Below, in pieces: positions 21,209-41,259 of a stretch of 42,147 nt of DNA. The translations under genes and the position numbers were made by a program. The DNA is from a virus. The notes beneath the pieces were generated by a model. That model ran no database searches. It saw nothing but the letters and a program-made list of their open reading frames with translations, and was not told the origin of the DNA. Each line of letters opens with the position of its first letter. Positions within the stretch are counted from its first letter, which is position 1. The stretch is taken from IMG/VR virus record IMGVR_UViG_3300026270_000002. The stretch is one strand, 5' to 3'.

Positions 21209-22228
21209 ATGGCTACACTATCAACCTCAAATTTAACACTAGCGGATTGGGCAAAAAGAACTGACCCAGACGGTAGAGTTCCAATTGTTGCAGAATTATT
21301 ATCACAAAGCAACGAAATACTAGATGATTGCGTGTTCAAGGAAGGTAATTTACCTACTGGAGAACGTGTAGTTATTAGAACAGGTCTACCCGGTGTTTAC
21401 TGGAGAGCACTTAACCAAGGTATTCCATCAACTAAGTCAACAACAGCACAGATTGACGAAGCTTGTGGAATTCTAGAAGCTCGTTCTGAAGTGGACAAAG
21501 ACTTGGCAATGTTAAATGGTAACACTGCACAGTTCCGTTTATCTGAAGACACTGCGTTCTTGGAAGCAATGAACCAGACTCAAGCAGAAACAATGTTCTA
21601 CGGTAATCCCGGAACAGATCCTAAGAAGTTTTTAGGATTAGCACCAAGATATGGTGACTTATCTGCTGACAACGCTGTCAACATTCTTGATGCAGGTGGA
21701 TCAGGTTCTGATAACGCTTCTGTATATCTAGTTGTTTGGGGTGACAATACTGTTTATTGTCCTTTTCCTAAAGGATCAAAAGCAGGTTTAACTCACGAAG
21801 ATCTAGGTGAGCAAACTGTTTACAACAGTGACGGTACAAGACTACAAGCTTTTGCTACTCGTTATCAGTGGAAAAACGGTTTGGTCGTTAAAGATTGGAG
21901 ATACGTTGTTCGTATTTGCAACATCGACATTTCTGACCTCCTTGGTAGTACTGGTACACAAACAGCAGCAGCTTCAACTAACTTAGTTAAATTGATGGCT
22001 AGAGCATTGTACAGAATACCAAACATGGCAATGGGAAGAGCAGCGTTCTATATGAATAGAACTGTTCACTCAGGCATGGCTATCGCAGCACTTGATAAAT
22101 CACAAAACGTATTAAACATACAAGAAGGTTTATCACAGTTTGGATCAGCACAAAACTACTTATCATTCCTTGGAGTACCTCTAAGAAGAGTAGATGCGTT
22201 GATTAACAGCGAAGCTCGTGTAGTTTAA
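21209..22228 (+). CDS. Major capsid protein (HK97 fold, BPP-1 Bbp17-like lineage)
   Basis: LTLADWAKRTDPDGRVPIVAELLSQSNEILDDCVFKEGNLPTGERV..LNGNTAQFRLSE is the typical N-terminal region of this MCP family. Size is 339 aa. Confidence 0.9.
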   Translation: MATLSTSNLTLADWAKRTDPDGRVPIVAELLSQSNEILDDCVFKEGNLPTGERVVIRTGLPGVYWRALNQGIPSTKSTTAQIDEACGILEARSEVDKDLAMLNGNTAQFRLSEDTAFLEAMNQTQAETMFYGNPGTDPKKFLGLAPRYGDLSADNAVNILDAGGSGSDNASVYLVVWGDNTVYCPFPKGSKAGLTHEDLGEQTVYNSDGTRLQAFATRYQWKNGLVVKDWRYVVRICNIDISDLLGSTGTQTAAASTNLVKLMARALYRIPNMAMGRAAFYMNRTVHSGMAIAALDKSQNVLNIQEGLSQFGSAQNYLSFLGVPLRRVDALINSEARVV

Positions 22229-26876: not shown

Positions 26877-29303
26877 ATGGCAAAAGTTCCTTTTCAAAAT
26901 TACAAATTAGGAGAACAAGTAGAAACAGGTTCTGAAGTGCAATTTGGTGCTACTAGTGTAGAACCACAAAAAGATGTAGTTTCTGATGACATAAAACGTA
27001 TGTCACAAGCTCAAATAGCTTTTGGAAAAACGTTAAATCGAATAGATGATCAGCTTAATGATTCTGAAGCTAAACGTTTGTATAACGAAGCTCATTATGA
27101 AGTTGAAGCTGTTGTAAACGAATATGGACAATTACAAGGTTACGATGCAGTAAAACCATTAACAACAGAAGGAGAGGGAGAAGATCAGGTATATACCTTA
27201 GATGAATATAACAACAATAAATTAAAAAAAGTTCTTGATACTGGTTCAGATAAAGCTAGTAATGGCGTTGTTAAATATATGTATGAACAAATGATGTCAT
27301 CGTCTATAAAATCTGCACAAAATAAGATGATTAATCATTCCTTAACACAAGGACGTATAGCATTAGAAAACGAAACAAATGCGAGTATTGACATACATAA
27401 AACTAAAGCAAAAAATAATTATAAAGATTTTAGAGATCCAGAGGGTGAATTTAATAAAAATCGTATAGCGGCACATAGATTATTAGAACAAAAAGCAGTT
27501 TTAAAAGGTTGGAATCTTGACCCTAATGCCGTTGATGCTAACGGTAAAAAAATTGGAATAAGTGAACAATATTTAAAAGAAAAAAGTGAGCTTGATAAGG
27601 AAATAGCAAAAGATGTATTAGATAAATTAGATGAAGACAAAGATACAGAAGGCATTAAAGATTTTTTGGCAAGCTTGAAGCCTTTTACATCTGATAAAAC
27701 TTTTAATGAATTAGCGTCAGACAAAGAACAAAAACACGAGAATTTTAAAGGTGAGAACTGTGTTAATGCCACTCTTGCTAATACTGGTAATCAAAACGAT
27801 GGTGAATTTTTAAGTCAAATTAATAAAACAATGTGTTTAAAATCAAACCATGCGTATGAAGATGGAAACGGAGGAGTTGTCACAGATGGATTACATTCAA
27901 ATGAAAACGAAACATCAGGTACAACAACAACAGAAAATATAGAAACATTACAAAAAATAAGAGATACGTCTAAATTTTATTCACCTGAATCTTCACAAGC
28001 AGGTACTCTTATACCAGAACATCAAACTACGCACTTGTTTGCAATACAGCATATAGGAGTAGAAAAAGCTGATTCATTGTACACAAAAGCAAAATCAGAC
28101 ATAGAGATTGATAAAGCAAAATACAAAGAAGATCCTGTATATGCTGAAAAAATAAATAAAAAAATTATACAAAGATACAATCAATTAATTGTTCAAGAAG
28201 CAGCAAAAAAATATAAATTTGGTGGTGGAGAATATGTAAGCATTATAGAAAACGATTTAGCAATTATAGAAAAAGGTATTGATTACAATTATAAAAATAC
28301 TAACGAAGAAGTTAAGGTAGATTTTGTTACAGGTTTGCGTCCTATAGAAGATTTAAAACGTGAAATTAAAGAAACTATTACAGATAAAGAAACACAAAAA
28401 CACGCAATAAAAGATTTAGAAGTTAAATACGAAAAAATCGCAAATCAAAAAACACAAATTTATAATGAAAATTTAAACGCTGCAAAAAAAATAGCATTTG
28501 CAGAGCCAAACGGATACAAGAATCTTGCAGCTAATGGAATACAAATAGATAGTTTTAGTCCAAAAGATCAAGAGATTTTAAAAAATGGACAGCCAGTAGA
28601 TTCTGATCAAGGAACGATAGCTAAATTAAAAGATAATCCAGAAGAAGTCGTTAATAATTTAGAGTCATACAGCCATAAAATTTCTAAATCTGATTATCTA
28701 GAATTAGAAAGATACGCTAAAGAATTGCAAGGAGGAGGAGAATCAAAAATTTTTGAAGTAACTACTGATAACAAAATGTTTAAAAGTGTTTTATATAAAA
28801 ATGGTTTTGGAGATTTAGCTTTTCCAGAAGAAGAATTAAAAGGCGATGATGCAGCTATATATAATGAACTTGAAGATGCATGGAGAGATAGAATAAATTA
28901 TGCACAAAGGGTAGAAGGCAGAAAATTAACTAGAGCAGAAAAAGAACAATTATTAGTAAATGTATTATTAGACAAAGTAAATGTAGGCAAGAAATATAAA
29001 AAACAGGTTACTTTTGCAACTGTTCTTGAGACAGGTGAAAAGGATAAGTTAGATAAAACATCTGTCCTTGTCAAAGTAAAACGTGCTGATGGAACTGAAA
29101 CAGAAGATCGGATATTTAATTCAGAGATTCCACCAGATATAAATATTGCAATAATGGCTGCGTTGTATAAACGTAAAAAACCTATGAATCAACAACAAAT
29201 TGCACAACTATGGCAAAACATGGGTAGGCCAGAAACGTTAGAAGAAGCGGATAAATTTATTAAAGCAAGTAAAAACTATGAATTATTAACTATGGAGGAA
29301 TAA
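26877..29303 (+). CDS. Internal virion protein B (gp15-position), Lys/Glu-rich helical
   Basis: An 808-aa ORF between the 193-aa and giant genes. Assignment is by synteny only. Confidence 0.5.
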   Translation: MAKVPFQNYKLGEQVETGSEVQFGATSVEPQKDVVSDDIKRMSQAQIAFGKTLNRIDDQLNDSEAKRLYNEAHYEVEAVVNEYGQLQGYDAVKPLTTEGEGEDQVYTLDEYNNNKLKKVLDTGSDKASNGVVKYMYEQMMSSSIKSAQNKMINHSLTQGRIALENETNASIDIHKTKAKNNYKDFRDPEGEFNKNRIAAHRLLEQKAVLKGWNLDPNAVDANGKKIGISEQYLKEKSELDKEIAKDVLDKLDEDKDTEGIKDFLASLKPFTSDKTFNELASDKEQKHENFKGENCVNATLANTGNQNDGEFLSQINKTMCLKSNHAYEDGNGGVVTDGLHSNENETSGTTTTENIETLQKIRDTSKFYSPESSQAGTLIPEHQTTHLFAIQHIGVEKADSLYTKAKSDIEIDKAKYKEDPVYAEKINKKIIQRYNQLIVQEAAKKYKFGGGEYVSIIENDLAIIEKGIDYNYKNTNEEVKVDFVTGLRPIEDLKREIKETITDKETQKHAIKDLEVKYEKIANQKTQIYNENLNAAKKIAFAEPNGYKNLAANGIQIDSFSPKDQEILKNGQPVDSDQGTIAKLKDNPEEVVNNLESYSHKISKSDYLELERYAKELQGGGESKIFEVTTDNKMFKSVLYKNGFGDLAFPEEELKGDDAAIYNELEDAWRDRINYAQRVEGRKLTRAEKEQLLVNVLLDKVNVGKKYKKQVTFATVLETGEKDKLDKTSVLVKVKRADGTETEDRIFNSEIPPDINIAIMAALYKRKKPMNQQQIAQLWQNMGRPETLEEADKFIKASKNYELLTMEE

Positions 29304-29304
29304 T

Positions 29305-32300
29305 ATGAGTTCATCAAATCCTTTTGATAATGTTGGAAACGATCAATTTTTAGGTGAAAGCTACGGATCTAATCAAAATAATTATGTAGATGACAATCCG
29401 TTTGATACTTATTTTAAAGTACAAGACAAACAAAAAGAAGAAGTACTAAAACAAGTTCTTAGTCTTGCACAAAAAAAAGATCCAAACAGAATTGGAAAAG
29501 CACAGATATTAGCTGAAGAATTAGGCATACCACCTGACATGGCACTAGATAATGAAGGTGTATTAGAAATATTAGAGGAAAGAAAAAAACAACAAGAAAT
29601 ACAAAATCTTAATGCACGAGATTTAGCATTAGTAAATCCATTGTTGGCAAAACAATTGCGTGATCCTAACTTTGCAGCAATAGCATATGACAATATTCCC
29701 AGACTACAAAAAACTGAAGGTTTATTTCCCGGTTTTAAAAAGTTAGCACAAAACTATTACGAAGGTGATGCAAGGGGAACTATCGCAAGAGAAATGGGAG
29801 ACATTGGAGATCGTTTAAAAACAAACGGTGTACCGTTTTTAGATACAAAAAGAGGATTTGAAGAAGGATATGTGCCCACTCAACAAGATTTAGATGACTT
29901 AGAAGCATTAAGAGTAATGGAAGAAAGATTAAGAGAATACGACAATAATGGTATTGGTCTTCTTGAAGGTTTCGCATATATGCCGGGTTTATTGCGTGGT
30001 GGTCAAATTGAAGCAATCACAGCAGGTTTAGTAACAGCCAAGGGAACAGATGTTGCAACAAAAGCACTTACTTCAACTTTTTTCTCTCAATTATTTGGTA
30101 ATGATGGCGGTGGCAATTTTATGGGCTACGGAGTTGGTTACGCAATTGGTCAGGTAGTTTCACCATTTATAAGTCTCTTTACTGGTATGAATGCTTATAC
30201 CAACAAAATGACTTTAGACATGAAACAAATAGCATCTGGTCATCAATATATGGAAGCAAGAAGTAGAGGTATAAGTGTAGAAAGAGCACAAGTATTAGCA
30301 GAAATAACTGGATGGAGTGAAGCTGCTATTGAAAGAGTAGGAATAGAATATTTTTCTCGTGTTTTAAAAAAAAGTGCACCGGGTTACTTAAAACTTATTG
30401 ACCCATTAACTAGTCCATTAATGAAAAAATCTGGATTAGATAAAGCAATAAACAGAGTATTTGCAAAAAATGTTTTAAGTAACGGTGGACGCAAACTTAC
30501 ATATAAAGCAGCATTATTTAGAGGTGCAACACAATATATGTCTAACGTAGGAGTAGAACTTACTACAGAATTATTACAAGAATTAAATGCAATTGCAGGT
30601 ATAAATTTATTTGCTGAATTTGAAGATGGAGTAACTCCAATTAGTGCAGTAGAAATAGGAGACAGAATTTATAACACAATGGATATGACTTTTAGAAGTA
30701 TGGTTTTATTTGGTTTATTGCCGTCAATAGGTAGTTTTGCAACTGATTTTACAGCGGCGAGCAAAGCAAAAAAAGATACCGCAATATTATCTAAGTTAAG
30801 TCAAATATCTAAAGATGACGTAACAAAAAAAAGAAATAAAACTGCATGGCAAAACTGGGTACAACAATTAGCCGATCAAAATAATGCAGACACAATACAT
30901 ATAAATGCACAGGAATTCAAACAACAATTAGATAACAATGCTATTACAGAACAGCAATTAGAATTGTTTTCACCAGAACTTGCTAATCAATTAAAAAATG
31001 CAGAAAAACAAGGTTTATCAGGAACAACTATACAAATAAAAACTGGTGATTATTTAGCAAATATTTCTGGTACAAAATTTGATGAGTCATTAAAACCACA
31101 TATAAAATTTGGTAGTGACCAAATGAGTTTGACAGAAGCTAATCAATTTTTTAAAGACCAGCCAGAAATATTAAAAGCAATGAAAGAAGAAGTTAGTAAA
31201 CAAAAAGACCAATTATTACAAGATCAAGAAGAATCAAGACAAATAGAATTACAAATTACAAACCAATTAAAGAATTTAAATATTTACAAACCACATAATG
31301 CCCGGTTTTTATCACGACTAATAGGAAATTTTGCAAAAACATATTCTCAATACACAAATCAAACACCTTCACAATTTATAAACGATCATTTTTATAACAT
31401 TCAATTAGACACTAAAAGTAAAAATTTTGGTCAACAATATTTTAATCAAGACGGAACAATAAAAACAGATTCGCCATTATTTAAAAACTGGTTTCGTAAA
31501 TCGAAAATGGTTAATAAAGATGGTACACCAATGGTTTTTTACCACGGAACTACAGACAATATAAGACAGTTTGATTTAGAACACCCAAACAGATTAGACA
31601 CAGGGTATTTAGGCAAAGGCATATACGTTACTCCTAACAAAGGATTGGCAAAGATTTATGCTGACATTAAAAAAAGTAGATTTAGAAAAAAAACAGAAGA
31701 TAAAAAAATATTAGAATTGTATGTACGTCTAGAAAATCCAAAAACAGTAAATGTAAATAGTGGGATTAAATCACAAAATAAAGATGGTGGTAAAGCAGCG
31801 GCAAATGCATACAAAGATAAATTAATTAACGAAGGACATGATGGTGTCATTATGGTTAATAATTCTGGAGAAATAGTAGAGGTAGCTGTTTTTGATGCAA
31901 ATGCTGTTAAGTCTGTAGACAATAGTGGTAACTGGTCTAACGAAATAAATGACATATATAAACAACAAGTTACAGAATCCTTTGAACAAAAAGCAACACA
32001 AAAACAAGGCAAGCCAGTATCAGAAGAAGTATTTCAATTAGCAAGAATTTTAGAAAATTTTGATTTTGCAAAGAGTAAACCTTTTGCAACTAATCGTGAT
32101 TTTAAATTAGAAATACAAGGTCGTATACAAGCTGCTGCTAAAAAAGCAGGTGTAAATTTAGCAGATTTTAGTGTAGAAACAGAAAAATATCTTGTAAGAA
32201 CTTTATTGGAAGACGCACGATTTGCTTTGACAGAAAATGCAAATGCTGTTGGTTGGTATGACGAAAAAGTATCTAAAGCAGTACGAATACTTTCTCTTGT

Positions 32301-35300
32301 ATATCCAAAAGTTGCTACTGATAAAAGACATGAATTTGTATTTAAATGGGCATTAGCAGCTACATCTAACGGTATAAAAGTAGATAAAAATTATGAGTAT
32401 GCAGCAGATGTATATGAAAAATGGTTGAGGTCAGAAGAAGAACTAGGTGAAGGTAAAGGCAGATTGCCAGAAAAAATGTTAAATGCACAAGGCGAAAAGA
32501 CAGGTGGTACTGCAAGAGCAGCAATGGAAAAATCTTTTAAAATATTAAATTTATTATTTGATAGAAAATCTTTTAAAGAAATAGAAGAATTTATGAGAAC
32601 TATGCATACTGTAAGAGAAGTGCATGAGTTTGTAGGAACATATAAAAATGGAAGACAAATAAAAGTAGGCGGTGGTTATGGATTAGATGAAATGGTTTAT
32701 GGTGCTGCAATAATGGGTCCAAAAATTGGTAATGGATTTTTTGCAAATTTAAATGGCAACTATGACCAATTAACTTTAGATAGATGGGCTATGCGTACAT
32801 GGGGTCGCATGACAGGTACGTTAGTTTTAAACAAACAAAAACAAGCAAAAATAAAAAGAGGGCAAATAAAACAAATAATTAAAGCTTTAACTAAGACACA
32901 GAAAAAAGCGTTTGAAGCAATTATTGGCAGAAAACTTACAATAGGTGACCTTGATCAATTAGCTATTGATATTGAAAAAGCATCTACTACAGAAGAAAAT
33001 CGTAAATTAATGGCACAAATAGCTACTTTTAAAGAAGATCCAAAACATAAAGAAATATATGTAGAAATTAATGGTAAGCCAAGAAAAGATGATGCCACAG
33101 TTTCTCTTGGTGACTACTTGCGTAAAAGAGGTAATTTATTAGCTAAAGATAATGATGGTCAAAAAGAAGCACCAAGTGGTGCTCCAGAAAGAAGAAATAT
33201 AGAAAAAGTTTTTGCACAAGTATTAGAAGTTTTGCAAAAAGATTATCCTTCTTTAACAATGGCAGATTTGCAAGCACTTGTTTGGTATCCAGAAAAAAAA
33301 TTATATGATTCTGCAAAATTAAAAGAAGCAGTAGTAGAAACAAATTACGAAGATAATGAAGCACCTGATTATGCCAATGCTGCTGTTGAATTTGCTGCTA
33401 GAATAGGTATACCAGATGAAGACATACAATCTGCAATACAGGAGGTGGATGATGAGTTACAGGCCGTTGAGCAATCAAGAGGAACACAACCTGATGCTGG
33501 AGGAAGAGGAGAGGTACGAGGAGATGATGGAACTTTCCAACAACAAGGAAGAATTGACGAAACCACAGGACTCCCTCTCAACCCAGATGGAACTGTCACC
33601 GTCTACCACCACACCAGTAGAAGAAACGCAGAACGAATCAGAGCGACAGGTGAACTTAGAAGTGCTGGAGAACCTGATGTCTACGTTACCACCAGAGCTA
33701 TCACGGATACTGGCTATGGTGATACAGCAGTTCCCATCAGGGTTGACCCAAAAATCCTTGAACCAAATGATGAATTCCCTAACGGACGAAGAGATTTCAA
33801 CATCAGACTTACAGATGCTGAAGGAAATCTTGTCTACGGAGGATCTATTCGAGTAAACGTTGGAGAGTTTGCACAGCAACAAGATTCTGACGGTGCTAGA
33901 GGTCGTTTTCAACCGGATACATTAACAGCATTATTTACTACACAAGCAGATTTCTCAACTTTTGCACATGAGAGTGCTCACTATATGTTAACTGTATTAG
34001 AAAATATAGTTACAGGAGAAAATGCCCCATTAGAACTAATAAATGATTTTAATATTTTATTAGATTTTTGGGGTGTAAAAGATTTAGAAACATGGAAATC
34101 TTTTGACATTGATCAAAAAAGAAAGTACCACGAATCATTTGCATATAACTTTGAAATTTATCTGTTTGAAGGTAAAGCTCCAAGCACGGCATTACAAGAA
34201 ATGTTTAGGAAATTTAGTAGATTTATTAAAAGAGTTTATACAGATGTTATTTACAAAGTTAACGCTGCTTATAAACAAGAAACTGGTCAAGACTTGCCTA
34301 TGCTTACTGACGAAGTAAGAAACGTAATGGACAGAATGTTAGCTGTTGATGAAGACATAGTACAAGCAAATGCAATATATGACATGAAAGGTATGTTCCA
34401 AACACAAGAACAAAGTGGGATGAATGATACAGAGTGGGCAGAATATACAGCAGCATTAGAAGAAGCAGAAAACGAATCAATAGAAATAATGACACGGCAA
34501 AGCATGAGACAAGTGCGTTGGTTAAATAACAAAAGAGAAAAAGTCAAAAAACAATTTGATAAAAAAGTTCTTAAATTGCGTCAAAAAATAGAACAAGAAG
34601 AACTTGAAAAATTAAAACAAGATCCAGTTTATAAAGTCCAATCATTTTTAAAACGTGGTGAAACTTATAATGAAAAAGGTGAATTAGTAAAAACAAAAGG
34701 TATTCATAAATTATCTATTAATAGCATCAAAAATTTAATACCATTTTATGACGAAGACGTAGCAAAAGCAGATATAAAAAAACTAGGTACTGGTCAAAAT
34801 GGCATGGTTAGAAAAAACGGTTTAGACGCAAAAGTTGTAGCAGATATGTTTGGGTTTCCATCAGGAGAATCATTGGTAAATGCATTATTAGAAATAAGAC
34901 CTATACAAGATGTTGTAAAAGAACGTACAGATCATCGTATGTTAGAAGAACATAGTGATTTAATTGATGACAGACAATTAGAATTACAAGTACAAGAAGC
35001 AATACATAACGAAGCAAGAGCAAGATTTATAGCAGTTGAACTAGGATTTTTAACAAAAGCTATGCAACCAGTAAGATATCAAGTTGCTGCTGCAAAACAA
35101 GTTGCTCAAGATATATTGGCAGAAATGAAATTATCAGAAATAAGACCGTCAGTATTTACAAGAGCAGAAGCTAATGCGTTAAAAGAAGCTGAAAAAGCAA
35201 TGAAAAGAAAAGATGCTGATTCTATTAGAGATGTTGTACAAGCAAAACGATCACAACTTTTAAACAATCAACTAGCAAAAGAAGCTATAGAAATACAAAA

Positions 35301-37968
35301 ACAATATAGAAAACAAGTTACAAATAGAGATTCTTTATTTAACAAGTTTTTTGGATCTGATAAAAAATTATTTAAAAAAGGCAAAAGTCAACGAAATTCA
35401 GATTTAGTAAGTGCGGGTAGAGCAATATTATCTTCTTATGGTATTGGACCAATAGTAGAAAATCCAATGGTGTATGTAGAAAATATGAAAGAATATGACA
35501 AATATATGTATGAAGAACTTAAGCCTATGATTGAGGACACACAAGCAGCCGAAGGTCAGGCAGATATTACAGATTTAACTTATGAAGAATTTTTAAATTT
35601 AAATGATTTGATGGAGTCTTTATGGCATCAATCTTTACGTCAAAATCAAATGAGAATACAAGGTGAATTAGTAGATATACAGCCATTAAAAGATACTTTA
35701 AATAATCGTATGAAAGTAATGATATCTAGAAGTAAAAGATTAAGTGCTAGAGCAGCAACACCTATTGGAACAACGGAAGCTGTACCAACATCATATGGCG
35801 ATTTTTTAGGGTTGTTAGGATTTGGAGCAAAACTGAGAAGAATGGAACCGTGGGTTGACATGATGGATGGAGCACAAGGTGTAAATCCGGGATTTCTTTC
35901 AGCAGTATTAGAATTAAAAGATGGCAAATTAGGTGATTTTTATAATACGTTATGGTTTCCAATGCGATCAGCATTAGATGAATACAGAGTAGATCAAACT
36001 ATTTATACAAAAGAATATGCAGAATTAGTTGGTGCTGTTGATTTTGGTAATACAGAAATTATGGCAAATGAATTTGCAATGGTTTCTGAAGAGTCTCAAG
36101 CATATAAATTTGGAGCAGAAAGTAATGGCAGAGGAAAAGTTGAATTGCTTGGAGCTATGCTGCATACAGGTAACGACAGCAATAAAAAGAAATTATTACT
36201 TGGCAGAAAATGGGGCAAACTTAACGAAGATGGGTCATTAGATTCAACTCATTGGGATGCGTTTGTAGAACGTATGATTAACGAGGGACATTTAACAAAA
36301 CAAGATTTTATATTTTTACAGTCAGTATGGGATTTAAATAAAAAGATGTTACCTCTTTTGCAAAAAGCACATAAAGAAACTGAAGGATATTATTTTAAAA
36401 TAGTTAAACCAACGCCAATTGTGAATAGATTTGGCGAATTTGAAGGAGGTTATGTACCTGCTAAAGGTGATCCAAATATGACAGATGTAAATATTAAAGA
36501 TGAAATAAGTACCGCAAAAATGGAGTTTAAAAATTCATTACCAAAAGTTGAAAACGGTATGACAAAAAAACGTAATGAGCAGTTTGCACAACCACTATCA
36601 TTGCATTTAGGCTATATGACAAAACATATAGATGACACACTACGTTATGCCCATATACAACCAGTAATCAAAGATTTATTAAAAATAATAGACGATAAAG
36701 AATTTACAAAGTTATTAAAAATTATAGATCCAACTATTAAAGATGAAATGATAATGCCTTGGTTAAAATCAGCAGCTAGTCAAAAAACATATTCACCTAG
36801 TGTGCTTGGTCCAAAAGCTGACGCACTTATACAAATTGGTAAACGTAGAACTGGTATGGGAATAATGTTTGGAAATTTAACAAACGCATTTACACAACTT
36901 ACAGGTTTATTCCCTGCACTTATAAAAGTAAAACCTAGACATTTAATAGAAGGCATAATTGAATACATGAAAGATAGAGAAGGCACAATGCAAAAAATTG
37001 CCGCAGCATCACCTTTCATGGCAGATAGACAACAGAATTTAATATTTGATATTCAAGGCAGGTTAAACGATTTAATTATAAATCCGGATAATTTTCAAAA
37101 AATGCAAGAGTGGAGTAAAGCTCATGGTTATTTTTTACAACAAACATTTCAAGGTATAACTGACGCTATTGTCTGGATTGGAACTGTTAACCAAGTAACT
37201 GAAAGAATGCCTGTAACTATGAGCAATGAAGAGGTAATGGCTGAAGCTATTAAACAAGCAGATGCAAATGTTCGTATGACACAAGATAGTTTATTGCCAG
37301 AAGACAGAGCAGCATTTCAAAACATGGACCCCATAATTCAATCATTAACACAATTTACTGGTTACTTTAATATGATTGCAAATTTAGATTTTACGCAATA
37401 TCAAAAGTTAGTTAAAGATGAAATAGGTTATAAAAATAAAGGTATAGGAACAGAGCAAGGATTTTATTTATATCTGTACACTATTCTTATGCCAGCAATA
37501 ATCTCAGGTCTTATTATGCGTGGTTTAGGTGGCAGATTAGGAGAAGACAAAGATGATGATGGCTATATACATGATGATGTAGCTAAAGCATTTTTAGGAG
37601 ATATTATGGGTTACAAGGCAGGTTTAATACCTGTAGTAGGACAACTTGCACTTATCCCAATAAATGCTCAAAATGATCTGCCTTGGGATGACGATATAGT
37701 TTCTAGCCCAAGTATTGAAGCATTGCAAGATTCGGCTCGTGTAATACTAGATCTTCCCATAACAATATTCCAAGAAGGTTTAGAAGGTACAACAGGAAAA
37801 CAAATAAGAGATGTTTCTACCTTGGTTACATTAAGAACTGGCATTCCATTTACACCATTAGGTAGAACATTTGGTTATTTACGAGATGTACAACGTGGCT
37901 ATGCTAAACCTAAAGGACCAGTTGATTTTATAAGAGGTGTTGTTACAGGTAAAACAGGTACAAGATAA
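29305..37968 (+). CDS. Giant (2,887 aa) internal/ejection polyvalent protein (gp16-position) with two ART-like modules, an HExxH module and C-terminal TM helices
   Basis: Uninterrupted ORF. Module 1: NWFRKSKMVNKDGTPMVFYHGT..GIYVT..GEIVEVAVFD, about 31477-31929. Module 2: TVTVYHHTS..DVYVTT..NDEFPNGRRDF, about 33560-33800. HESAH lies at 33967-33981, followed by YHESFAYNFEIYLFEGKAPS. The C-terminal hydrophobic helices are LYTILMPAIISGLIM and LIPVVGQLALIPI. Confidence 0.8.
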   Translation: MSSSNPFDNVGNDQFLGESYGSNQNNYVDDNPFDTYFKVQDKQKEEVLKQVLSLAQKKDPNRIGKAQILAEELGIPPDMALDNEGVLEILEERKKQQEIQNLNARDLALVNPLLAKQLRDPNFAAIAYDNIPRLQKTEGLFPGFKKLAQNYYEGDARGTIAREMGDIGDRLKTNGVPFLDTKRGFEEGYVPTQQDLDDLEALRVMEERLREYDNNGIGLLEGFAYMPGLLRGGQIEAITAGLVTAKGTDVATKALTSTFFSQLFGNDGGGNFMGYGVGYAIGQVVSPFISLFTGMNAYTNKMTLDMKQIASGHQYMEARSRGISVERAQVLAEITGWSEAAIERVGIEYFSRVLKKSAPGYLKLIDPLTSPLMKKSGLDKAINRVFAKNVLSNGGRKLTYKAALFRGATQYMSNVGVELTTELLQELNAIAGINLFAEFEDGVTPISAVEIGDRIYNTMDMTFRSMVLFGLLPSIGSFATDFTAASKAKKDTAILSKLSQISKDDVTKKRNKTAWQNWVQQLADQNNADTIHINAQEFKQQLDNNAITEQQLELFSPELANQLKNAEKQGLSGTTIQIKTGDYLANISGTKFDESLKPHIKFGSDQMSLTEANQFFKDQPEILKAMKEEVSKQKDQLLQDQEESRQIELQITNQLKNLNIYKPHNARFLSRLIGNFAKTYSQYTNQTPSQFINDHFYNIQLDTKSKNFGQQYFNQDGTIKTDSPLFKNWFRKSKMVNKDGTPMVFYHGTTDNIRQFDLEHPNRLDTGYLGKGIYVTPNKGLAKIYADIKKSRFRKKTEDKKILELYVRLENPKTVNVNSGIKSQNKDGGKAAANAYKDKLINEGHDGVIMVNNSGEIVEVAVFDANAVKSVDNSGNWSNEINDIYKQQVTESFEQKATQKQGKPVSEEVFQLARILENFDFAKSKPFATNRDFKLEIQGRIQAAAKKAGVNLADFSVETEKYLVRTLLEDARFALTENANAVGWYDEKVSKAVRILSLVYPKVATDKRHEFVFKWALAATSNGIKVDKNYEYAADVYEKWLRSEEELGEGKGRLPEKMLNAQGEKTGGTARAAMEKSFKILNLLFDRKSFKEIEEFMRTMHTVREVHEFVGTYKNGRQIKVGGGYGLDEMVYGAAIMGPKIGNGFFANLNGNYDQLTLDRWAMRTWGRMTGTLVLNKQKQAKIKRGQIKQIIKALTKTQKKAFEAIIGRKLTIGDLDQLAIDIEKASTTEENRKLMAQIATFKEDPKHKEIYVEINGKPRKDDATVSLGDYLRKRGNLLAKDNDGQKEAPSGAPERRNIEKVFAQVLEVLQKDYPSLTMADLQALVWYPEKKLYDSAKLKEAVVETNYEDNEAPDYANAAVEFAARIGIPDEDIQSAIQEVDDELQAVEQSRGTQPDAGGRGEVRGDDGTFQQQGRIDETTGLPLNPDGTVTVYHHTSRRNAERIRATGELRSAGEPDVYVTTRAITDTGYGDTAVPIRVDPKILEPNDEFPNGRRDFNIRLTDAEGNLVYGGSIRVNVGEFAQQQDSDGARGRFQPDTLTALFTTQADFSTFAHESAHYMLTVLENIVTGENAPLELINDFNILLDFWGVKDLETWKSFDIDQKRKYHESFAYNFEIYLFEGKAPSTALQEMFRKFSRFIKRVYTDVIYKVNAAYKQETGQDLPMLTDEVRNVMDRMLAVDEDIVQANAIYDMKGMFQTQEQSGMNDTEWAEYTAALEEAENESIEIMTRQSMRQVRWLNNKREKVKKQFDKKVLKLRQKIEQEELEKLKQDPVYKVQSFLKRGETYNEKGELVKTKGIHKLSINSIKNLIPFYDEDVAKADIKKLGTGQNGMVRKNGLDAKVVADMFGFPSGESLVNALLEIRPIQDVVKERTDHRMLEEHSDLIDDRQLELQVQEAIHNEARARFIAVELGFLTKAMQPVRYQVAAAKQVAQDILAEMKLSEIRPSVFTRAEANALKEAEKAMKRKDADSIRDVVQAKRSQLLNNQLAKEAIEIQKQYRKQVTNRDSLFNKFFGSDKKLFKKGKSQRNSDLVSAGRAILSSYGIGPIVENPMVYVENMKEYDKYMYEELKPMIEDTQAAEGQADITDLTYEEFLNLNDLMESLWHQSLRQNQMRIQGELVDIQPLKDTLNNRMKVMISRSKRLSARAATPIGTTEAVPTSYGDFLGLLGFGAKLRRMEPWVDMMDGAQGVNPGFLSAVLELKDGKLGDFYNTLWFPMRSALDEYRVDQTIYTKEYAELVGAVDFGNTEIMANEFAMVSEESQAYKFGAESNGRGKVELLGAMLHTGNDSNKKKLLLGRKWGKLNEDGSLDSTHWDAFVERMINEGHLTKQDFIFLQSVWDLNKKMLPLLQKAHKETEGYYFKIVKPTPIVNRFGEFEGGYVPAKGDPNMTDVNIKDEISTAKMEFKNSLPKVENGMTKKRNEQFAQPLSLHLGYMTKHIDDTLRYAHIQPVIKDLLKIIDDKEFTKLLKIIDPTIKDEMIMPWLKSAASQKTYSPSVLGPKADALIQIGKRRTGMGIMFGNLTNAFTQLTGLFPALIKVKPRHLIEGIIEYMKDREGTMQKIAAASPFMADRQQNLIFDIQGRLNDLIINPDNFQKMQEWSKAHGYFLQQTFQGITDAIVWIGTVNQVTERMPVTMSNEEVMAEAIKQADANVRMTQDSLLPEDRAAFQNMDPIIQSLTQFTGYFNMIANLDFTQYQKLVKDEIGYKNKGIGTEQGFYLYLYTILMPAIISGLIMRGLGGRLGEDKDDDGYIHDDVAKAFLGDIMGYKAGLIPVVGQLALIPINAQNDLPWDDDIVSSPSIEALQDSARVILDLPITIFQEGLEGTTGKQIRDVSTLVTLRTGIPFTPLGRTFGYLRDVQRGYAKPKGPVDFIRGVVTGKTGTR

Positions 37969-38034: not shown

Positions 38035-41000
38035 ATGACGATAAATTCGACTACACGAAAGACTAGTAATTTGGCCGGAAATGGCAATACTCATACATAT
38101 CCGTTTGCCTTTAAAGTTTTTACAGACGCAGATGTAGTTGTAAAAAAATTAGAAGTTAGTACAAGTATAGAAACTACCTTAACTCTAGGTGCTAACAATG
38201 ATTATATAGTTACTTTAAATTCAGATCAAAATGGTAATCCCGGTGGAAGCATAACCTTAAAATCAGGTGGTAACAATTTTAATTTACCTTCTGGTTTTCA
38301 ACTTGTTATTACATCTGCTGTAGAACCATTACAAGGAACAGATCTTACTAACCAAGGTGGATTTTACCCAGAGGTTATTAATGACGCTTTAGATCAAGCA
38401 GTTATATTGCACCAACAACAGCAAGATGAATTAGATAGATCAATTAAATTTTCATTAACTAATACTATTGGTAGTTTAGAAATTACAGAAAACGCTAACG
38501 CTCGTAAAAACAGAGTATTAGGTTTTGACAATTTAGGTGAGTTTGAAGTATTAAAAGAACTAGGAACATATCGTGGTAATTGGGCTGCTGGTACTTCTTA
38601 TGCAGTAAGAGATCTTGTTAAAGATACATCTACAAATAATATTTTCTTTTGTAATACAGCACATACTTCACAAGGTGCACAGCCATTAACAACTAATACT
38701 AACTCTGCAAATTGGGATTTAATAGTAGACGCAGCATCATCTACTACTGCACAAAATAATGCAGCGGCATCCGCTACTGCATCCGCAAATTCTGCCACTG
38801 CCGCAGCTTCATCTCAAACGGCAGCAGCAAATAGTGCGACGGCCGCAGCAACGTCTGAAACAAATGCAAGTAATTCTGCAACTACTGCATCTACAAAAGC
38901 GACACAAGCAGACGCATCTAAAACAGCCGCCCAAACTGCGCAAGCCGCAGCGGAACTTGCACTTGATACTTTTGATGACAGATATTTAGGAGCAAAACAA
39001 AGCGACCCGGCTACGGATAATGACGGTAATGCACTTATAGATGGAGCGTTATATTACAACACAACATCTAACATAACTAAAGTTTATGATTTAGGTACAA
39101 CATCTTGGTTAGTTGTAAATATAACTGGTACTGATCTAACAAATACAAATACAGTTGCTGGTGCGATTAGTAACGTTAATACAGTAAGCAGCAACATTTC
39201 TAATGTAAATGCAGTTGCTAGTAATTCTAGTAATATTAACGCTGTAGCTGGAAATAACAGCAATATTAATACAGTTGCAGCAGCTAATACAAATGTTAAT
39301 TCTGTAGCTGGCAGTATTGCAAACGTAAATACTGTGGCAAGCAATATATCCAACGTCAATACAGTAGCAGCGGATATCGCTAAAGTAGTTACTGTCGCTA
39401 ATGATTTAAATGAAACTGTTTCAGAAATAGAAACAGCAGCAGCAGATTTACAAGAAACAACTTCAGAAATAGATACTGTTGCTAATGCAATTACTAATGT
39501 AAACCTAGTAGGAAATAATATAAGTAATATCAATGCAATAGGTACTATTCTTGCAGGTCAAACTACATATGCAGTAACTGTTGCTAATGGTGTTTTCTAT
39601 ATTGATGGTGCTGCTAATCCAACTCTAAGTATTATTAGAGGGTTTACATATATATTTGACCAATCGAACAATTCAAATGCTGGGCATCCATTAGCTTTTA
39701 AAGATGGAAGTGGCAATGCTTATACAACTGGAGTAACTGTTAACGGTACGGCAGGTCAATCAAATGCAAATGTAACTTTTGTTGTACCTTCAAATGCCCC
39801 TGCATCAATGCGTTATTACTGTACACAACATGGTAATGGTATGGGTAATACTATTACAGTTGGTGATGACAATATTGGTGTTGTAGCAGGTGATATAAAT
39901 AACGTTAATACTGTTGCAGGTTCAATCTCTAACGTAAATAATGTTGGTGGTAGTATTGCAAATGTTAACTCTGTTGCTAGTAATTTAAGTGGTGTTAATG
40001 CATTTGCTGAAAGATATAGAACAGATAATAGTGGTAATAATCCATCAACTAATAATGATGGTGGTGATTTATTTTTTAACCAAGCAAGCGGTAAATTACT
40101 TGTTTATAACGCTAACACTTCTGCATGGGAAGAAACACAATCTGTTGGTAACTTTTTTATAAATACTATTAGCAGTTTTAGTGGCACTGGTGGTAATAGT
40201 GCAACGTTTAATGGATCTGCATACAAATTTACATTAAGCAATGCAGGTCAGTTTGCTCAACAAATGTTGGTAAGTGTTGCTGGTGTAGTACAAAAACCAA
40301 ATACAGGCACAGGACAACCTAGTGAAGGGTTTGCTTTAGATGGTGCAAACATTGTTTTTGCTGCTCCACCTCCAGCCGGGGCTGATTATTTTATAGTTAC
40401 TATTGGTGCGTCTGTAAGTATTGGTACGCCTAGCGATGGCACTATTACAGAAGCCAAATTAAATGCTAGTAACAATCCTGTTAATGGATATTTTTTACAA
40501 GCACAATCTGGTGCAGCAGGTGGTTTAACTTGGGCTGCTGTAGATCTTACTAATCTAAGTGCAAGCAATTTAACTTCTGGTACTTTACCTAATGCTAGAT
40601 TCCCTGCAACATTGCCAGCAGTTAGTGGAGCAAATCTAACTAATTTACCAGCAGGTAATTTAACAGGCACAGTAGCAGATGCTCGTATCACAAGTTTAAC
40701 AGCATCAAAATTAACAGGTGCTTTGCCCGCCATAGACGGATCAAACCTTACAGGTATTACCTCAACAACTATAAACAACAACGCAAACAATAGAATTATT
40801 ACTGGTTCTGGAACTGCAAATACTTTAGAAGGTGAATCAACCTTAACCTTTGATGGTACAAATTTACTTTTTGGTGCTGGTAGAAGTCTTAGATTTACCT
40901 CTGGTGGAGGTTGGTCAGGTAATAGTGCTATGAAGATTGAAGGTCATAATAATCATCTTTATCTTTGTGGTGGATCAAGTGGATTTATCTTTAGAGATAC

Positions 41001-41259
41001 TGGTGGTACTGACCAATGGGGTATCAATAGTAGTGGACATTTTTTTCCTCAAAGTAACAATACTTACGATATAGGTACTACAAGTTATAGAGTAAGAAAC
41101 ATCTACACTAATGACCTTAACTTATCTAACGAAGGTTCTTCTAATGACGTTGACGGAACTTGGGGAAGTTATACTATACAAGAAGGAGCAGAAGATCTTT
41201 TCTTGGTGAACAAACGCAATGGTAAAAAATATAAATTTAATTTAACGGAGGTAACATAA
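38035..41259 (+). CDS. Tail fiber 1 (1,074 aa): Ala/Ser/Thr coiled coil, decapeptide-repeat shaft, embedded cupredoxin-like domain, conserved C-terminal domain
   Basis: AELALDTFDDRYLGAKQSDPATDNDGNALIDGALYYNT is a classic phage fiber segment. The xIxNVNxVAx repeats and the C-terminus NLSNEGSSNDVDGTWGSYTIQEGAEDLFLVNKRNGKKYKFNL also fit. Confidence 0.85.
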   Translation: MTINSTTRKTSNLAGNGNTHTYPFAFKVFTDADVVVKKLEVSTSIETTLTLGANNDYIVTLNSDQNGNPGGSITLKSGGNNFNLPSGFQLVITSAVEPLQGTDLTNQGGFYPEVINDALDQAVILHQQQQDELDRSIKFSLTNTIGSLEITENANARKNRVLGFDNLGEFEVLKELGTYRGNWAAGTSYAVRDLVKDTSTNNIFFCNTAHTSQGAQPLTTNTNSANWDLIVDAASSTTAQNNAAASATASANSATAAASSQTAAANSATAAATSETNASNSATTASTKATQADASKTAAQTAQAAAELALDTFDDRYLGAKQSDPATDNDGNALIDGALYYNTTSNITKVYDLGTTSWLVVNITGTDLTNTNTVAGAISNVNTVSSNISNVNAVASNSSNINAVAGNNSNINTVAAANTNVNSVAGSIANVNTVASNISNVNTVAADIAKVVTVANDLNETVSEIETAAADLQETTSEIDTVANAITNVNLVGNNISNINAIGTILAGQTTYAVTVANGVFYIDGAANPTLSIIRGFTYIFDQSNNSNAGHPLAFKDGSGNAYTTGVTVNGTAGQSNANVTFVVPSNAPASMRYYCTQHGNGMGNTITVGDDNIGVVAGDINNVNTVAGSISNVNNVGGSIANVNSVASNLSGVNAFAERYRTDNSGNNPSTNNDGGDLFFNQASGKLLVYNANTSAWEETQSVGNFFINTISSFSGTGGNSATFNGSAYKFTLSNAGQFAQQMLVSVAGVVQKPNTGTGQPSEGFALDGANIVFAAPPPAGADYFIVTIGASVSIGTPSDGTITEAKLNASNNPVNGYFLQAQSGAAGGLTWAAVDLTNLSASNLTSGTLPNARFPATLPAVSGANLTNLPAGNLTGTVADARITSLTASKLTGALPAIDGSNLTGITSTTINNNANNRIITGSGTANTLEGESTLTFDGTNLLFGAGRSLRFTSGGGWSGNSAMKIEGHNNHLYLCGGSSGFIFRDTGGTDQWGINSSGHFFPQSNNTYDIGTTSYRVRNIYTNDLNLSNEGSSNDVDGTWGSYTIQEGAEDLFLVNKRNGKKYKFNLTEVT
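39139..39543 (+). repeat. Array of about 30-nt (10-aa) imperfect tandem repeats in tail fiber 1
   Basis: ISNVNTVSSN / ISNVNAVASN / SSNINAVAGN / NSNINTVAAA / NTNVNSVAGS / IANVNTVASN / ISNVNTVAAD / IAKVVTVAND, then ETVSEIET / ETTSEIDT and two further NV(I)N units. Confidence 0.85.
39871..40005 (+). repeat. Second block of the same decapeptide repeats, downstream of the cupredoxin-like domain
   Basis: GVVAGDINNVNTVAGSISNVNNVGGSIANVNSVASNLSGVNAF. Confidence 0.8.

Follow-up and report, generated by a model that had tools for sequence, protein, structure and literature searches.

A GC-rich island in the giant polyvalent-protein gene of a BPP-1-like phage: a probable embedded overlapping gene

Genes and features of the locus

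The virus record IMGVR_UViG_3300026270_000002 of IMG/VR is a stretch of 42,147 nucleotides (nt) with a GC content of ~36%, referred to below in its full length as the window. It carries a giant late gene in which a sharp GC-rich island coincides with a small module resembling ADP-ribosyltransferases (ARTs), here called mini-ART, and with the low-complexity linker preceding it (Table 1). An initial annotation of this DNA had explained the island by recent acquisition of an effector domain from a donor of higher GC content. We find that the island is best, and quite probably, explained as an embedded overlapping gene lying above the mini-ART module in the +1 frame relative to the giant gene (frame 0), and not as such an acquisition.

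Table 1. Features of the giant gene and of the GC-rich island (positions in the window).
Feature	Position	Strand	Remarks
Giant gene	29305..37968	+	2887 amino acids (aa); host frame (frame 0) of the overlap; homologue of BPP-1 Bbp10/phrog_9880, polyvalent and putative virion protein
First ART module, Pfam ART-PolyVal, aa 737-874	31513..31926	+	E 8e-18, 66 bits (cut-off 31.2)
Antisense open reading frame (ORF)	33369..33599	-	by-product of local composition; not conserved
Putative Shine-Dalgarno (SD) sequence AGGAGG of the embedded gene	33440..33445	+	frame-0 codons CAG GAG, rare G-ending
Embedded overlapping ORF (+1 frame)	33452..33856	+	134 aa + stop, 405 nt; open frame, SD, synonymous constraint
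Antisense ORF, 145 aa	33475..33912	-	by-product of local composition; not conserved
Upstream frame-0 low-complexity linker (SRGTQPDAGGRGEVRGDDGTFQQQ)	33475..33546	+	+1 frame gives the predicted acidic N-terminal helix of the embedded protein
Mini-ART-like module, IDETTGLP...VNVGEF	33553..33870	+	106 aa; alignment, AlphaFold2 (AF2) model, Foldseek
Downstream frame-0 linker (AQQQDSDGARGRF)	33871..33909	+	conserved C-terminal two-fifths of the giant protein begins here

Composition of the island

The compositional departure noticed in the initial annotation is real. In 300-nt windows the GC content is 0.42-0.48 over 33300-33999 compared with about 0.26-0.38 elsewhere in the giant gene (~0.31 overall), and the value of 0.48 at 33400-33800 tops every 400-nt window of the 42-kb sequence (their maximum being 0.455). 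The GC content of third codon positions (GC3), calculated in 50-codon windows, peaks at 0.40 in the island against a gene mean of 0.165 (standard deviation, sd, 0.07), the three highest of all GC3 windows being located there, and the first and second positions (GC1 and GC2) are raised as well. The island coincides with the second ART-like module of the protein, and the bracketing low-complexity linkers and the TVYHHTS...DEFPNGRRDF module are present in the translation as described.

The reported switch to C- and G-ending codons holds for C only. The frequency of C at third positions (C3) is 0.302 in the island versus 0.078 in the gene, which is above the C3 of any gene of the window (maximum 0.261), while that of G (G3) falls to 0.028 from 0.085. 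In the pooled sequences of ~75 relatives, C/(C+T) in NNY codons is 0.49 in the island versus 0.155 outside and G/(G+A) in NNR codons is 0.08 versus 0.12, with no shift in the codons for Asp, Ser and Pro. A rise of C3 accompanied by a fall of G3 speaks against a higher-GC donor, which would raise both. Amino-acid composition was also considered as the cause of the GC rise and rejected; it covers part of the change in GC1 and GC2, but stand-alone homologues of the module have a GC content of only 0.34-0.35.

Three long ORFs had been noted over the island and taken as spurious. All three exist, and the two on the minus strand were indeed rejected as genes for want of conservation among relatives: the frame of 33475-33912 has a stop-free run of anything from 126 to 456 nt and covers the island in only 5% of them. 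The ORF on the plus strand (33416-33856) is not spurious and probably gives rise to the compositional signal, as described in the following.

The embedded open reading frame

The +1 ORF fills by far the longest +1 stop-free run of the giant gene, which extends over 450 nt where successive stops are on average 30 nt apart. Although the mechanical ORF begins at 33416, the predicted start is the ATG at 33452, an in-frame ATG at 33449 being not conserved. In the sequence of 33437-33454, ACAGGAGGTGGATGATG, AGGAGG is placed 6 nt upstream of this ATG. The hexamer occurs only three times on the plus strand of the window, and the ribosome-binding sites (RBSs) of the other late genes of the phage are AGGAG or GGAGG at a spacing of 5-9 nt.

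Relatives were collected by an IMG/VR scan with the island family, which returned 80 loci; counts out of 58 below refer to non-identical relatives, and the third-position alignment comprises 65 low-GC relatives. AGGAGG is found exactly 6 nt before an in-frame start codon in 53 of the 58 (ATG in 42, GTG in 6 and TTG in 5), and the remaining five have AGGAGA, AAGAGG or AAGGAAG ahead of ATG. The third-position G of the two SD codons, CAG and GAG, is kept in 97-98% of the 65 relatives, compared with ~10% for G-ending Gln and Glu codons elsewhere. In the divergent relative L093 the frame-0 motif SAGEPDVYVTT is replaced by YTTASDPFFTT, and AGGAGG, the 6-nt spacing, a TTG start and the open +1 frame are retained.

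The predicted product has a mass of 15.5 kDa and an isoelectric point (pI) of 4.1, with 28 acidic and 8 basic residues and neither Cys nor Trp, and tryptic peptides such as QVNLEVLENLMSTLPPELSR and ILAMVIQQFPSGLTQK would be unique to it. Gene callers independently list the embedded ORF in 58 protein clusters. A relative of the embedded protein is encoded in 101 IMG/VR stretches and the ART module in 183.

Some stored records show peculiarities. For L093 and L094 (Tara and other ENA scaffolds) the gene tables list the embedded ORF and omit the surrounding giant gene, even though no stop interrupts frame 0 over more than 2000 codons. In L004, a long-read contig, indels have broken the giant gene into dozens of fragments, and one of the calls on this contig, P0021, is a chimera that begins in the +1 frame and continues in frame 0. 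In the window itself, a weak sigma-70-like match (TTGGTA, 16 nt, TATGAT; 9/12) is located at 33282-33309 on the plus strand, ~140 nt upstream of the embedded start, and might be relevant should the small gene be transcribed separately.

Conservation and selection among relatives

In ~78 of the 80 loci the flanks have a GC content of 0.30-0.38, the giant gene encodes 2750-3330 aa and the module is found at aa 1330-1430. These low-GC relatives share the island, with a GC content of 0.42-0.50 and a GC3 of 0.29-0.38 versus 0.12-0.28 in the rest of the gene, and ENA contigs at 73-88% nucleotide identity show the same GC step. In the high-GC relatives L074 and L077, the island GC3 is below their own background.

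The +1 frame is open in all 58 relatives, with a stop-free run of 355-406 nt. The nearest upstream +1 stop is usually within ~12 nt of the embedded start, and the terminating stop has the same position in all listed relatives but one, apart from an 18-nt shift where a 6-codon insertion is present. This insertion (GNLVYG in frame 0, 33823-33840, near the end of the ART module) is shared by the window with just four relatives; both products become longer through it, and both frames stay open. From the protein sequence and the codon usage of the gene, 9.2 +1 stops would be expected over 135 codons, and none of 50,000 resamples with this codon usage gave fewer than two.

Frame-0 synonymous divergence among the 58 relatives is 0.30-0.38 along 4.5 kb and drops to 0.14-0.20 only over 33433-33850. 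Overall it is 0.160 inside the +1 ORF versus 0.329 outside, and all of 1007 equal-sized control blocks lie above the overlap (minimum 0.272, sd 0.0225). The drop starts at ~33457 and ends at ~33853 and thus matches the boundaries of the embedded ORF, with its start at 33452 and its stop ending at 33856. It spans the upstream linker, which is variable in its frame-0 amino acids, while comparably variable stretches elsewhere show normal values; so do other stretches of the giant gene that are as conserved as the module. The frozen frame-0 third positions are not restricted to C, for CCT, GAT, GTT, GCT and AGA codons are among those kept at 0.97-1.0 in the 65 relatives.

Selection in the alternate frame was estimated by dNN/dNS, an alternate-frame dN/dS, obtained as a crude OLGenie-style count in which isolated pairwise differences were classified in both frames. 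For the +1 frame of the overlap the ratio is 0.35 (bootstrap 0.20-0.62), compared with 0.78 (0.59-1.08) and 0.69 (0.55-0.88) for the fake +1 frames of the upstream and downstream flanks and 1.45 (0.74-3.12) for the fake +2 frame of the overlap, which is purifying selection on the +1 frame. In the linker of 33475-33546 diversity at frame-0 codon positions 1, 2 and 3 is 0.36, 0.36 and 0.31, versus 0.29, 0.22 and 0.40 in the flanks, and conservation of the +1 translation is 0.52 versus 0.44 for frame 0. Over the ART core the corresponding conservation values are 0.80 and 0.84.

Homologues of the module that are not overlapped served as controls. Two stand-alone proteins from low-GC marine phage contigs, P0003 and P0015, are 58-65% identical to the domain of the window, and their genes have a GC content of 0.35 and 0.34, a GC3 of 0.19 and 0.145 and a C3 of 0.086 and 0.067, respectively. 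Their +1 frame has 8-14 stops, and +1 stops are present in the high-GC relatives too. The open frame, the initiation signals and the synonymous constraint are all absent from homologues without the overlap. Neither the protein sequence of the module nor its history, therefore, demands the C3 bias.

Weighing of the explanations

Several observations weigh against an embedded gene. With the codon usage of the island itself, the probability of finding no stop in the +1 frame is 0.15, which is not significant in a test that is circular. The open frame, being not rare, hence proves nothing alone, and the case depends on the SD with its start codon, on the synonymous constraint that matches the ORF boundaries and on the controls. 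In the ART core, diversity is lowered roughly proportionally, about two-fold, at all three codon positions, as it would be in a younger segment; the excess of conservation (z = 6-9) is equally large for the +2 and the +1 translation and does not pick the frame; and the selection tests are crude and pairwise, with no correction for phylogeny. The embedded protein has no homologue outside the overlap, and its sequence gave nothing significant in Pfam, PHROGs or PADLOC. Its structure model is of just moderate confidence (mean predicted local distance difference test, pLDDT, 64), consisting of an N-terminal helix, a disordered middle rich in Ser, Thr, Pro and Gln and four short C-terminal helices, and a Foldseek search of PDB with it found no fold match. 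We infer only from sequence that the product is made as a protein.

Among the alternatives, translational selection on the ART module for C-ending codons, be it for accuracy, speed or co-translational folding, with the open +1 frame as a passive by-product, seems quite unlikely. NNC codons are the classic 'accurate' choice, the probability of 0.15 given above would allow the frame to be open by chance, and the bias is strongest in the most conserved stretch of the protein. Nevertheless, the stand-alone homologues from equally AT-rich phages have no such bias, the codons for Asp, Ser and Pro are unshifted and many T- and A-ending codons are as invariant as the C-ending ones. Moreover, the constraint extends over the non-conserved linker, equally conserved stretches elsewhere keep normal synonymous divergence, and neither the conserved SD-6 nt-start arrangement nor a dNN/dNS effect specific to the +1 frame would be expected.

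The two-fold fall of diversity at all three codon positions could also reflect a segment younger than its flanks, which recent recombination or a sweep has made uniform throughout the clade, so that divergence is lowered at all positions. Island and flank distances are weakly correlated (Spearman 0.29) with some mosaic pairs, which indicates that recombination does occur. The third-position distance of the island, however, rises with the flank distance before it reaches a plateau at 0.20 versus 0.43, and 37% of its third positions are invariant (5% in the flanks) while 23% are saturated. The coexistence of the two classes points to site-specific constraint rather than a uniformly young segment, and a young segment would not explain why only C3 is biased, why SD, start and stop are conserved and why dNN/dNS is frame-specific. 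We regard it as very unlikely.

Programmed +1 frameshifting is scarcely credible, even though the downstream +1 frame is open and conserved and internal SD-like sequences stimulate frameshifting in prfB and dnaX. In this reading the SD-like AGGAGG would be the stimulator, and the product would be a giant protein truncated to ~1382 aa and carrying an alternative tail of 134 aa, instead of a separate small protein. The site has neither a conserved slippery codon nor a stop or rare codon in frame 0, and a +1 stop lies just upstream of the start in most relatives. Frameshifting also needs no start codon, yet one is placed at a fixed 6 nt in 53 relatives or after a variant SD in five.

A constraint at the level of the nucleic acid, such as an RNA structure or a DNA packaging or regulatory signal, is to be considered because nucleotide conservation goes beyond the need of frame 0 and both alternative translations are raised in identity. 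The predicted folding energy, however, equals that of shuffled sequences (z = 0.07), no Rfam match was obtained, and no convincing promoter or terminator was seen, internal promoter candidates being weak consensus matches only. The constraint is specific to codon phase and bounded by a start and a stop, and such an element is hardly to be believed in.

Finally, recent in-frame insertion of the module from a higher-GC donor, with composition not yet ameliorated, is extremely improbable: although the island is sharp, its site is the break point relative to the three closest GenBank relatives and the domain is clearly mobile among giant proteins and occurs in high-GC phages (L074, L077) too, only C3 shifts while G3 is depleted, T- and A-ending codons are frozen site by site as well, the onset of the constraint is at the embedded start codon, within the linker, and not at the domain edge, no near-identical donor is known (best protein matches outside the clade are 50-66% identical), and ~78 equally low-GC relatives, with flanks near synonymous saturation, carry the segment in the same place with the same bias. 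The last of these observations is one that the initial annotation itself had named as refuting its reading. The initial annotation had also seen a cassette-like swap site here, which applies on a deep evolutionary scale, as unrelated inserts in GenBank relatives and the shuffling of the module attest, but not to a recent event.

Probable overprinting of the mini-ART module

Taken together, these results favour an embedded gene, which may have arisen and may act as follows. The giant late gene would encode an effector-like module of ~106 aa with an ART fold between two linkers, and one large clade of low-GC marine BPP-1-like podoviruses would have acquired a second gene by overprinting of this stretch in the +1 frame. 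Since the ART module exists widely without the overlap, the +1 gene would be the newcomer. Ribosomes would start internally on the giant-gene mRNA at AGGAGG-6 nt-ATG and produce the very acidic 134-aa protein. Third positions of frame 0, being second positions of +1 codons, would no longer be free: xTA and xTG codons before a purine would be avoided, since each would create a +1 stop, and many NNY codons would keep a C that gives Ser, Thr or Pro in the +1 reading. Such dual-coding constraints would raise C3 and GC content, remove the +1 stops and halve synonymous variation between the embedded start and stop.

As to the function of the product, we would guess, with low confidence, that it assists or neutralises the giant protein or its mini-ART and is translated from the same late message. 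That it acts as a partner of this protein while the phage is being produced, made from the shared message and either neutralising mini-ART or chaperoning the giant protein before packaging, is speculative and rather doubtful. It is less likely still that it is a dedicated partner of the overlapped domain itself, as an antidote or inhibitor in the producing cell or as a packaging chaperone.

Embedded out-of-frame genes are a known phenomenon in phages, represented by Rz1 in Rz of lambda, 18.7 in 18.5 of T7, and E in D and B in A of phiX174; new are the gene, the host gene and the protein family. As in these cases, a larger gene fully contains a complete small one, which is on the same strand in a shifted frame and has its own putative RBS, and the host gene is reduced in synonymous variation and skewed in composition. 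Unlike the o-spanins of the Rz1 type, the product, with its low pI, has no Cys, no lipobox and no hydrophobic N-terminus. It is no spanin or lysis protein and has no signal or transmembrane segment. Further differences from the known embedded genes are the host gene, which encodes a polyvalent and putative virion protein of 2887 aa, the position of the overlap on an enzyme-like ART module and its linker, and a protein family that matches no known relatives. In comparison with horizontally acquired compositional islands, the sharp local GC rise and altered codon usage in an otherwise uniform region are alike, and the differences are that C3 alone rises and that the pattern has been passed down through a deep clade and goes with an alternative reading frame.

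The mini-ART module

The conserved residues of the module are a His (VYHHT), a Tyr (DVYVTT) and Asp/Glu (NDEFPNGRRDF). In the alignment H27 is invariant and Y52, D81 and E82 are at least 90% conserved, and in the AF2 model (mean pLDDT 84, core >90) all four are on or at the ends of predicted strands, which is the His-Tyr-Asp/Glu pattern of the ART superfamily. The top Foldseek matches in PDB are Agrobacterium 6b, the Rhs toxin TreTu and RhsP2 (probability 0.90-0.99, template modelling score, TM, 0.41-0.47), and those in BFVD are a mycobacteriophage ART, PARP domains and DarT. All top matches are of the ART fold with a probability of 0.9-1.0, at a TM of only 0.41-0.52.

Profile searches gave less. 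In Pfam, the copy of the window passed no curated ART family model, and 29 homologues had sub-threshold matches to PTS_2-RNA (Tpt1/KptA) in 13 cases, Tox-ART-HYD1 in 8 and ART-PolyVal in 1; one JGI record labels a homologue 'RNA:NAD 2'-phosphotransferase'. By hhalign, the H and Y motifs of the island family align with those of the ART-PolyVal copy, the match being not significant. The family profile gave chance hits only against PDB sequences, PHROGs and PADLOC nothing significant for the island, and tblastn against phages no match even at E = 1. From the model and the motifs, the frame-0 module appears to be a mini ADP-ribosyltransferase-like domain of the effector or toxin type.

An exhaustive search placed the family in 372 clusters at 50% identity. 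Most of these belong to giant proteins, in which both the position of the module and its order relative to ART-PolyVal vary. Across hundreds of such proteins the copies are 50-66% identical, while the scaffolds are 20-35% identical or cannot be aligned. At exactly the same junction the three closest GenBank relatives have unrelated inserts of 246-579 aa, in which Pfam found nothing. Outside giant genes the module was met in L088 634-981 (P0003) and L091 103-639 (P0015). One of these stand-alone forms is a 115-aa gene adjoining a gene of >1250 aa, and the other is a 178-aa protein with an N-terminal extension of ~75 aa, encoded just before the capsid module of an SU10-like phage.

The module resembles the ART domains of polyvalent proteins in being a small His-Tyr-Asp/Glu ART-like unit of giant proteins encoded in phage structural regions, present once or several times per protein and in many domain architectures, and the protein of the window also has a bona fide ART-PolyVal domain. 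It differs from them in reaching no Pfam ART threshold and no significant hhalign match to the ART-PolyVal copy, in being shorter (~100 aa) and in being closer, by weak matches, to Tpt1/KptA and Tox-ART-HYD1.

The phage and its giant gene

The gene order of the window is that of BPP-1-like podoviruses, and the major capsid protein (21209-22228) shares 84-86% identity with its counterparts in Limnohabitans phage DC33 and three freshwater metagenomic or unannotated phages. The giant gene is flanked by tail and lysozyme-like genes on one side and a tail fibre on the other. Over aa 1525-2884 its product matches phrog_9880, the BPP-1 Bbp10 family (E 3e-277); this match and every tblastn match to distant relatives among the BPP-1-like podoviruses begin at aa 1525-1549. 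No match of the giant gene to deposited phages was obtained by megablast. With Pfam LPD22 (aa 53-150) above threshold next to ART-PolyVal, this very large multidomain protein combines LPD and effector domains and fits the class of polyvalent proteins with ART domains (Pfam ART-PolyVal, Tox-ART-HYD2 clade) described by Iyer et al. 2017 (PMC5512222). Synteny is what suggests its packaging in the virion and delivery into the host.

Proteins of the Bbp10/phrog_9880 family, labelled 'crystallin beta/gamma motif-containing protein' in GenBank, share the C-terminal ~1350 aa with the giant protein and occupy the same slot, with a lysozyme or peptidase gene ahead of them and the tail fibre behind. Variation is found in the N-terminal half and at the junction slot, the Bbp10-type relatives in GenBank have 53-55% GC and the unrelated inserts in place of mini-ART, and the island is unmatched in any deposited phage record.

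The closest deposited relatives (L001-L003) have the 84-86% identical capsids, yet 53-55% GC versus 36% in the window, a gap that presumably follows the hosts, from freshwater to low-GC marine ones. One of them, Limnohabitans phage DC33 (L002, PQ492659.1, 39 kb), is placed by the GenBank taxonomy line in the Inoviridae, the filamentous single-stranded DNA phages. As it encodes a BPP-1-like capsid protein (84% identical to that of the window) and a giant protein of 3125 aa, this looks like a misclassification.

Other compositional features of the window

Codon usage is not uniform along the genome, which matters for any call of an 'island': GC3 is 0.15-0.16 in the late giant gene and its upstream neighbour (26877-37968), and 0.25-0.45 in the genes of the left arm and capsid region (1-23000). 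A second GC rise, to 0.41-0.47 at 38600-39200, is found in the tail-fibre gene (38035-41259) and holds a +1 stop-free run of 261 nt (38729-38989). Frame 0 is of low complexity there and rich in Ala, Ser and Thr (AAASATASANSATAAASS...), with a GC3 of just 0.20-0.30, and the rise looks like an amino-acid effect at the second codon position rather than a second overlap. The next-longest +1 stop-free runs of the giant gene, 34088-34318 (231 nt) and 36029-36241 (213 nt), lie at local GC3 peaks of 0.32-0.34. At 34100-34300 synonymous divergence has normal values (0.30-0.385), and the run of 34088-34318 is therefore probably due to chance.

Significance

A 'foreign-looking' GC island in a gene can signal dual coding instead of transfer, and a rise restricted to C at third positions together with frozen synonymous sites distinguishes the former from the latter. 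We know of few fully embedded overlapping genes that have been established in tailed double-stranded DNA phages, to which the present case probably adds a long (405-nt), fully embedded and well-supported one. Its conservation extends to at least 101 contigs from viral metagenomes, and standard annotation would miss it where the genome is intact. The analysis also defines a previously unannotated family, mini-ART, which is shuffled among giant, putative virion proteins.

The overlap raises the testable idea that effector modules of polyvalent proteins may need a co-encoded helper. To our knowledge, a two-frame arrangement of toxin and antidote has not been described for phage polyvalent proteins. 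If the embedded protein were a dedicated partner of the domain that it overlaps, the same 400 bases would encode effector and neutraliser, each in a frame of its own, and the two would move together as a unit.

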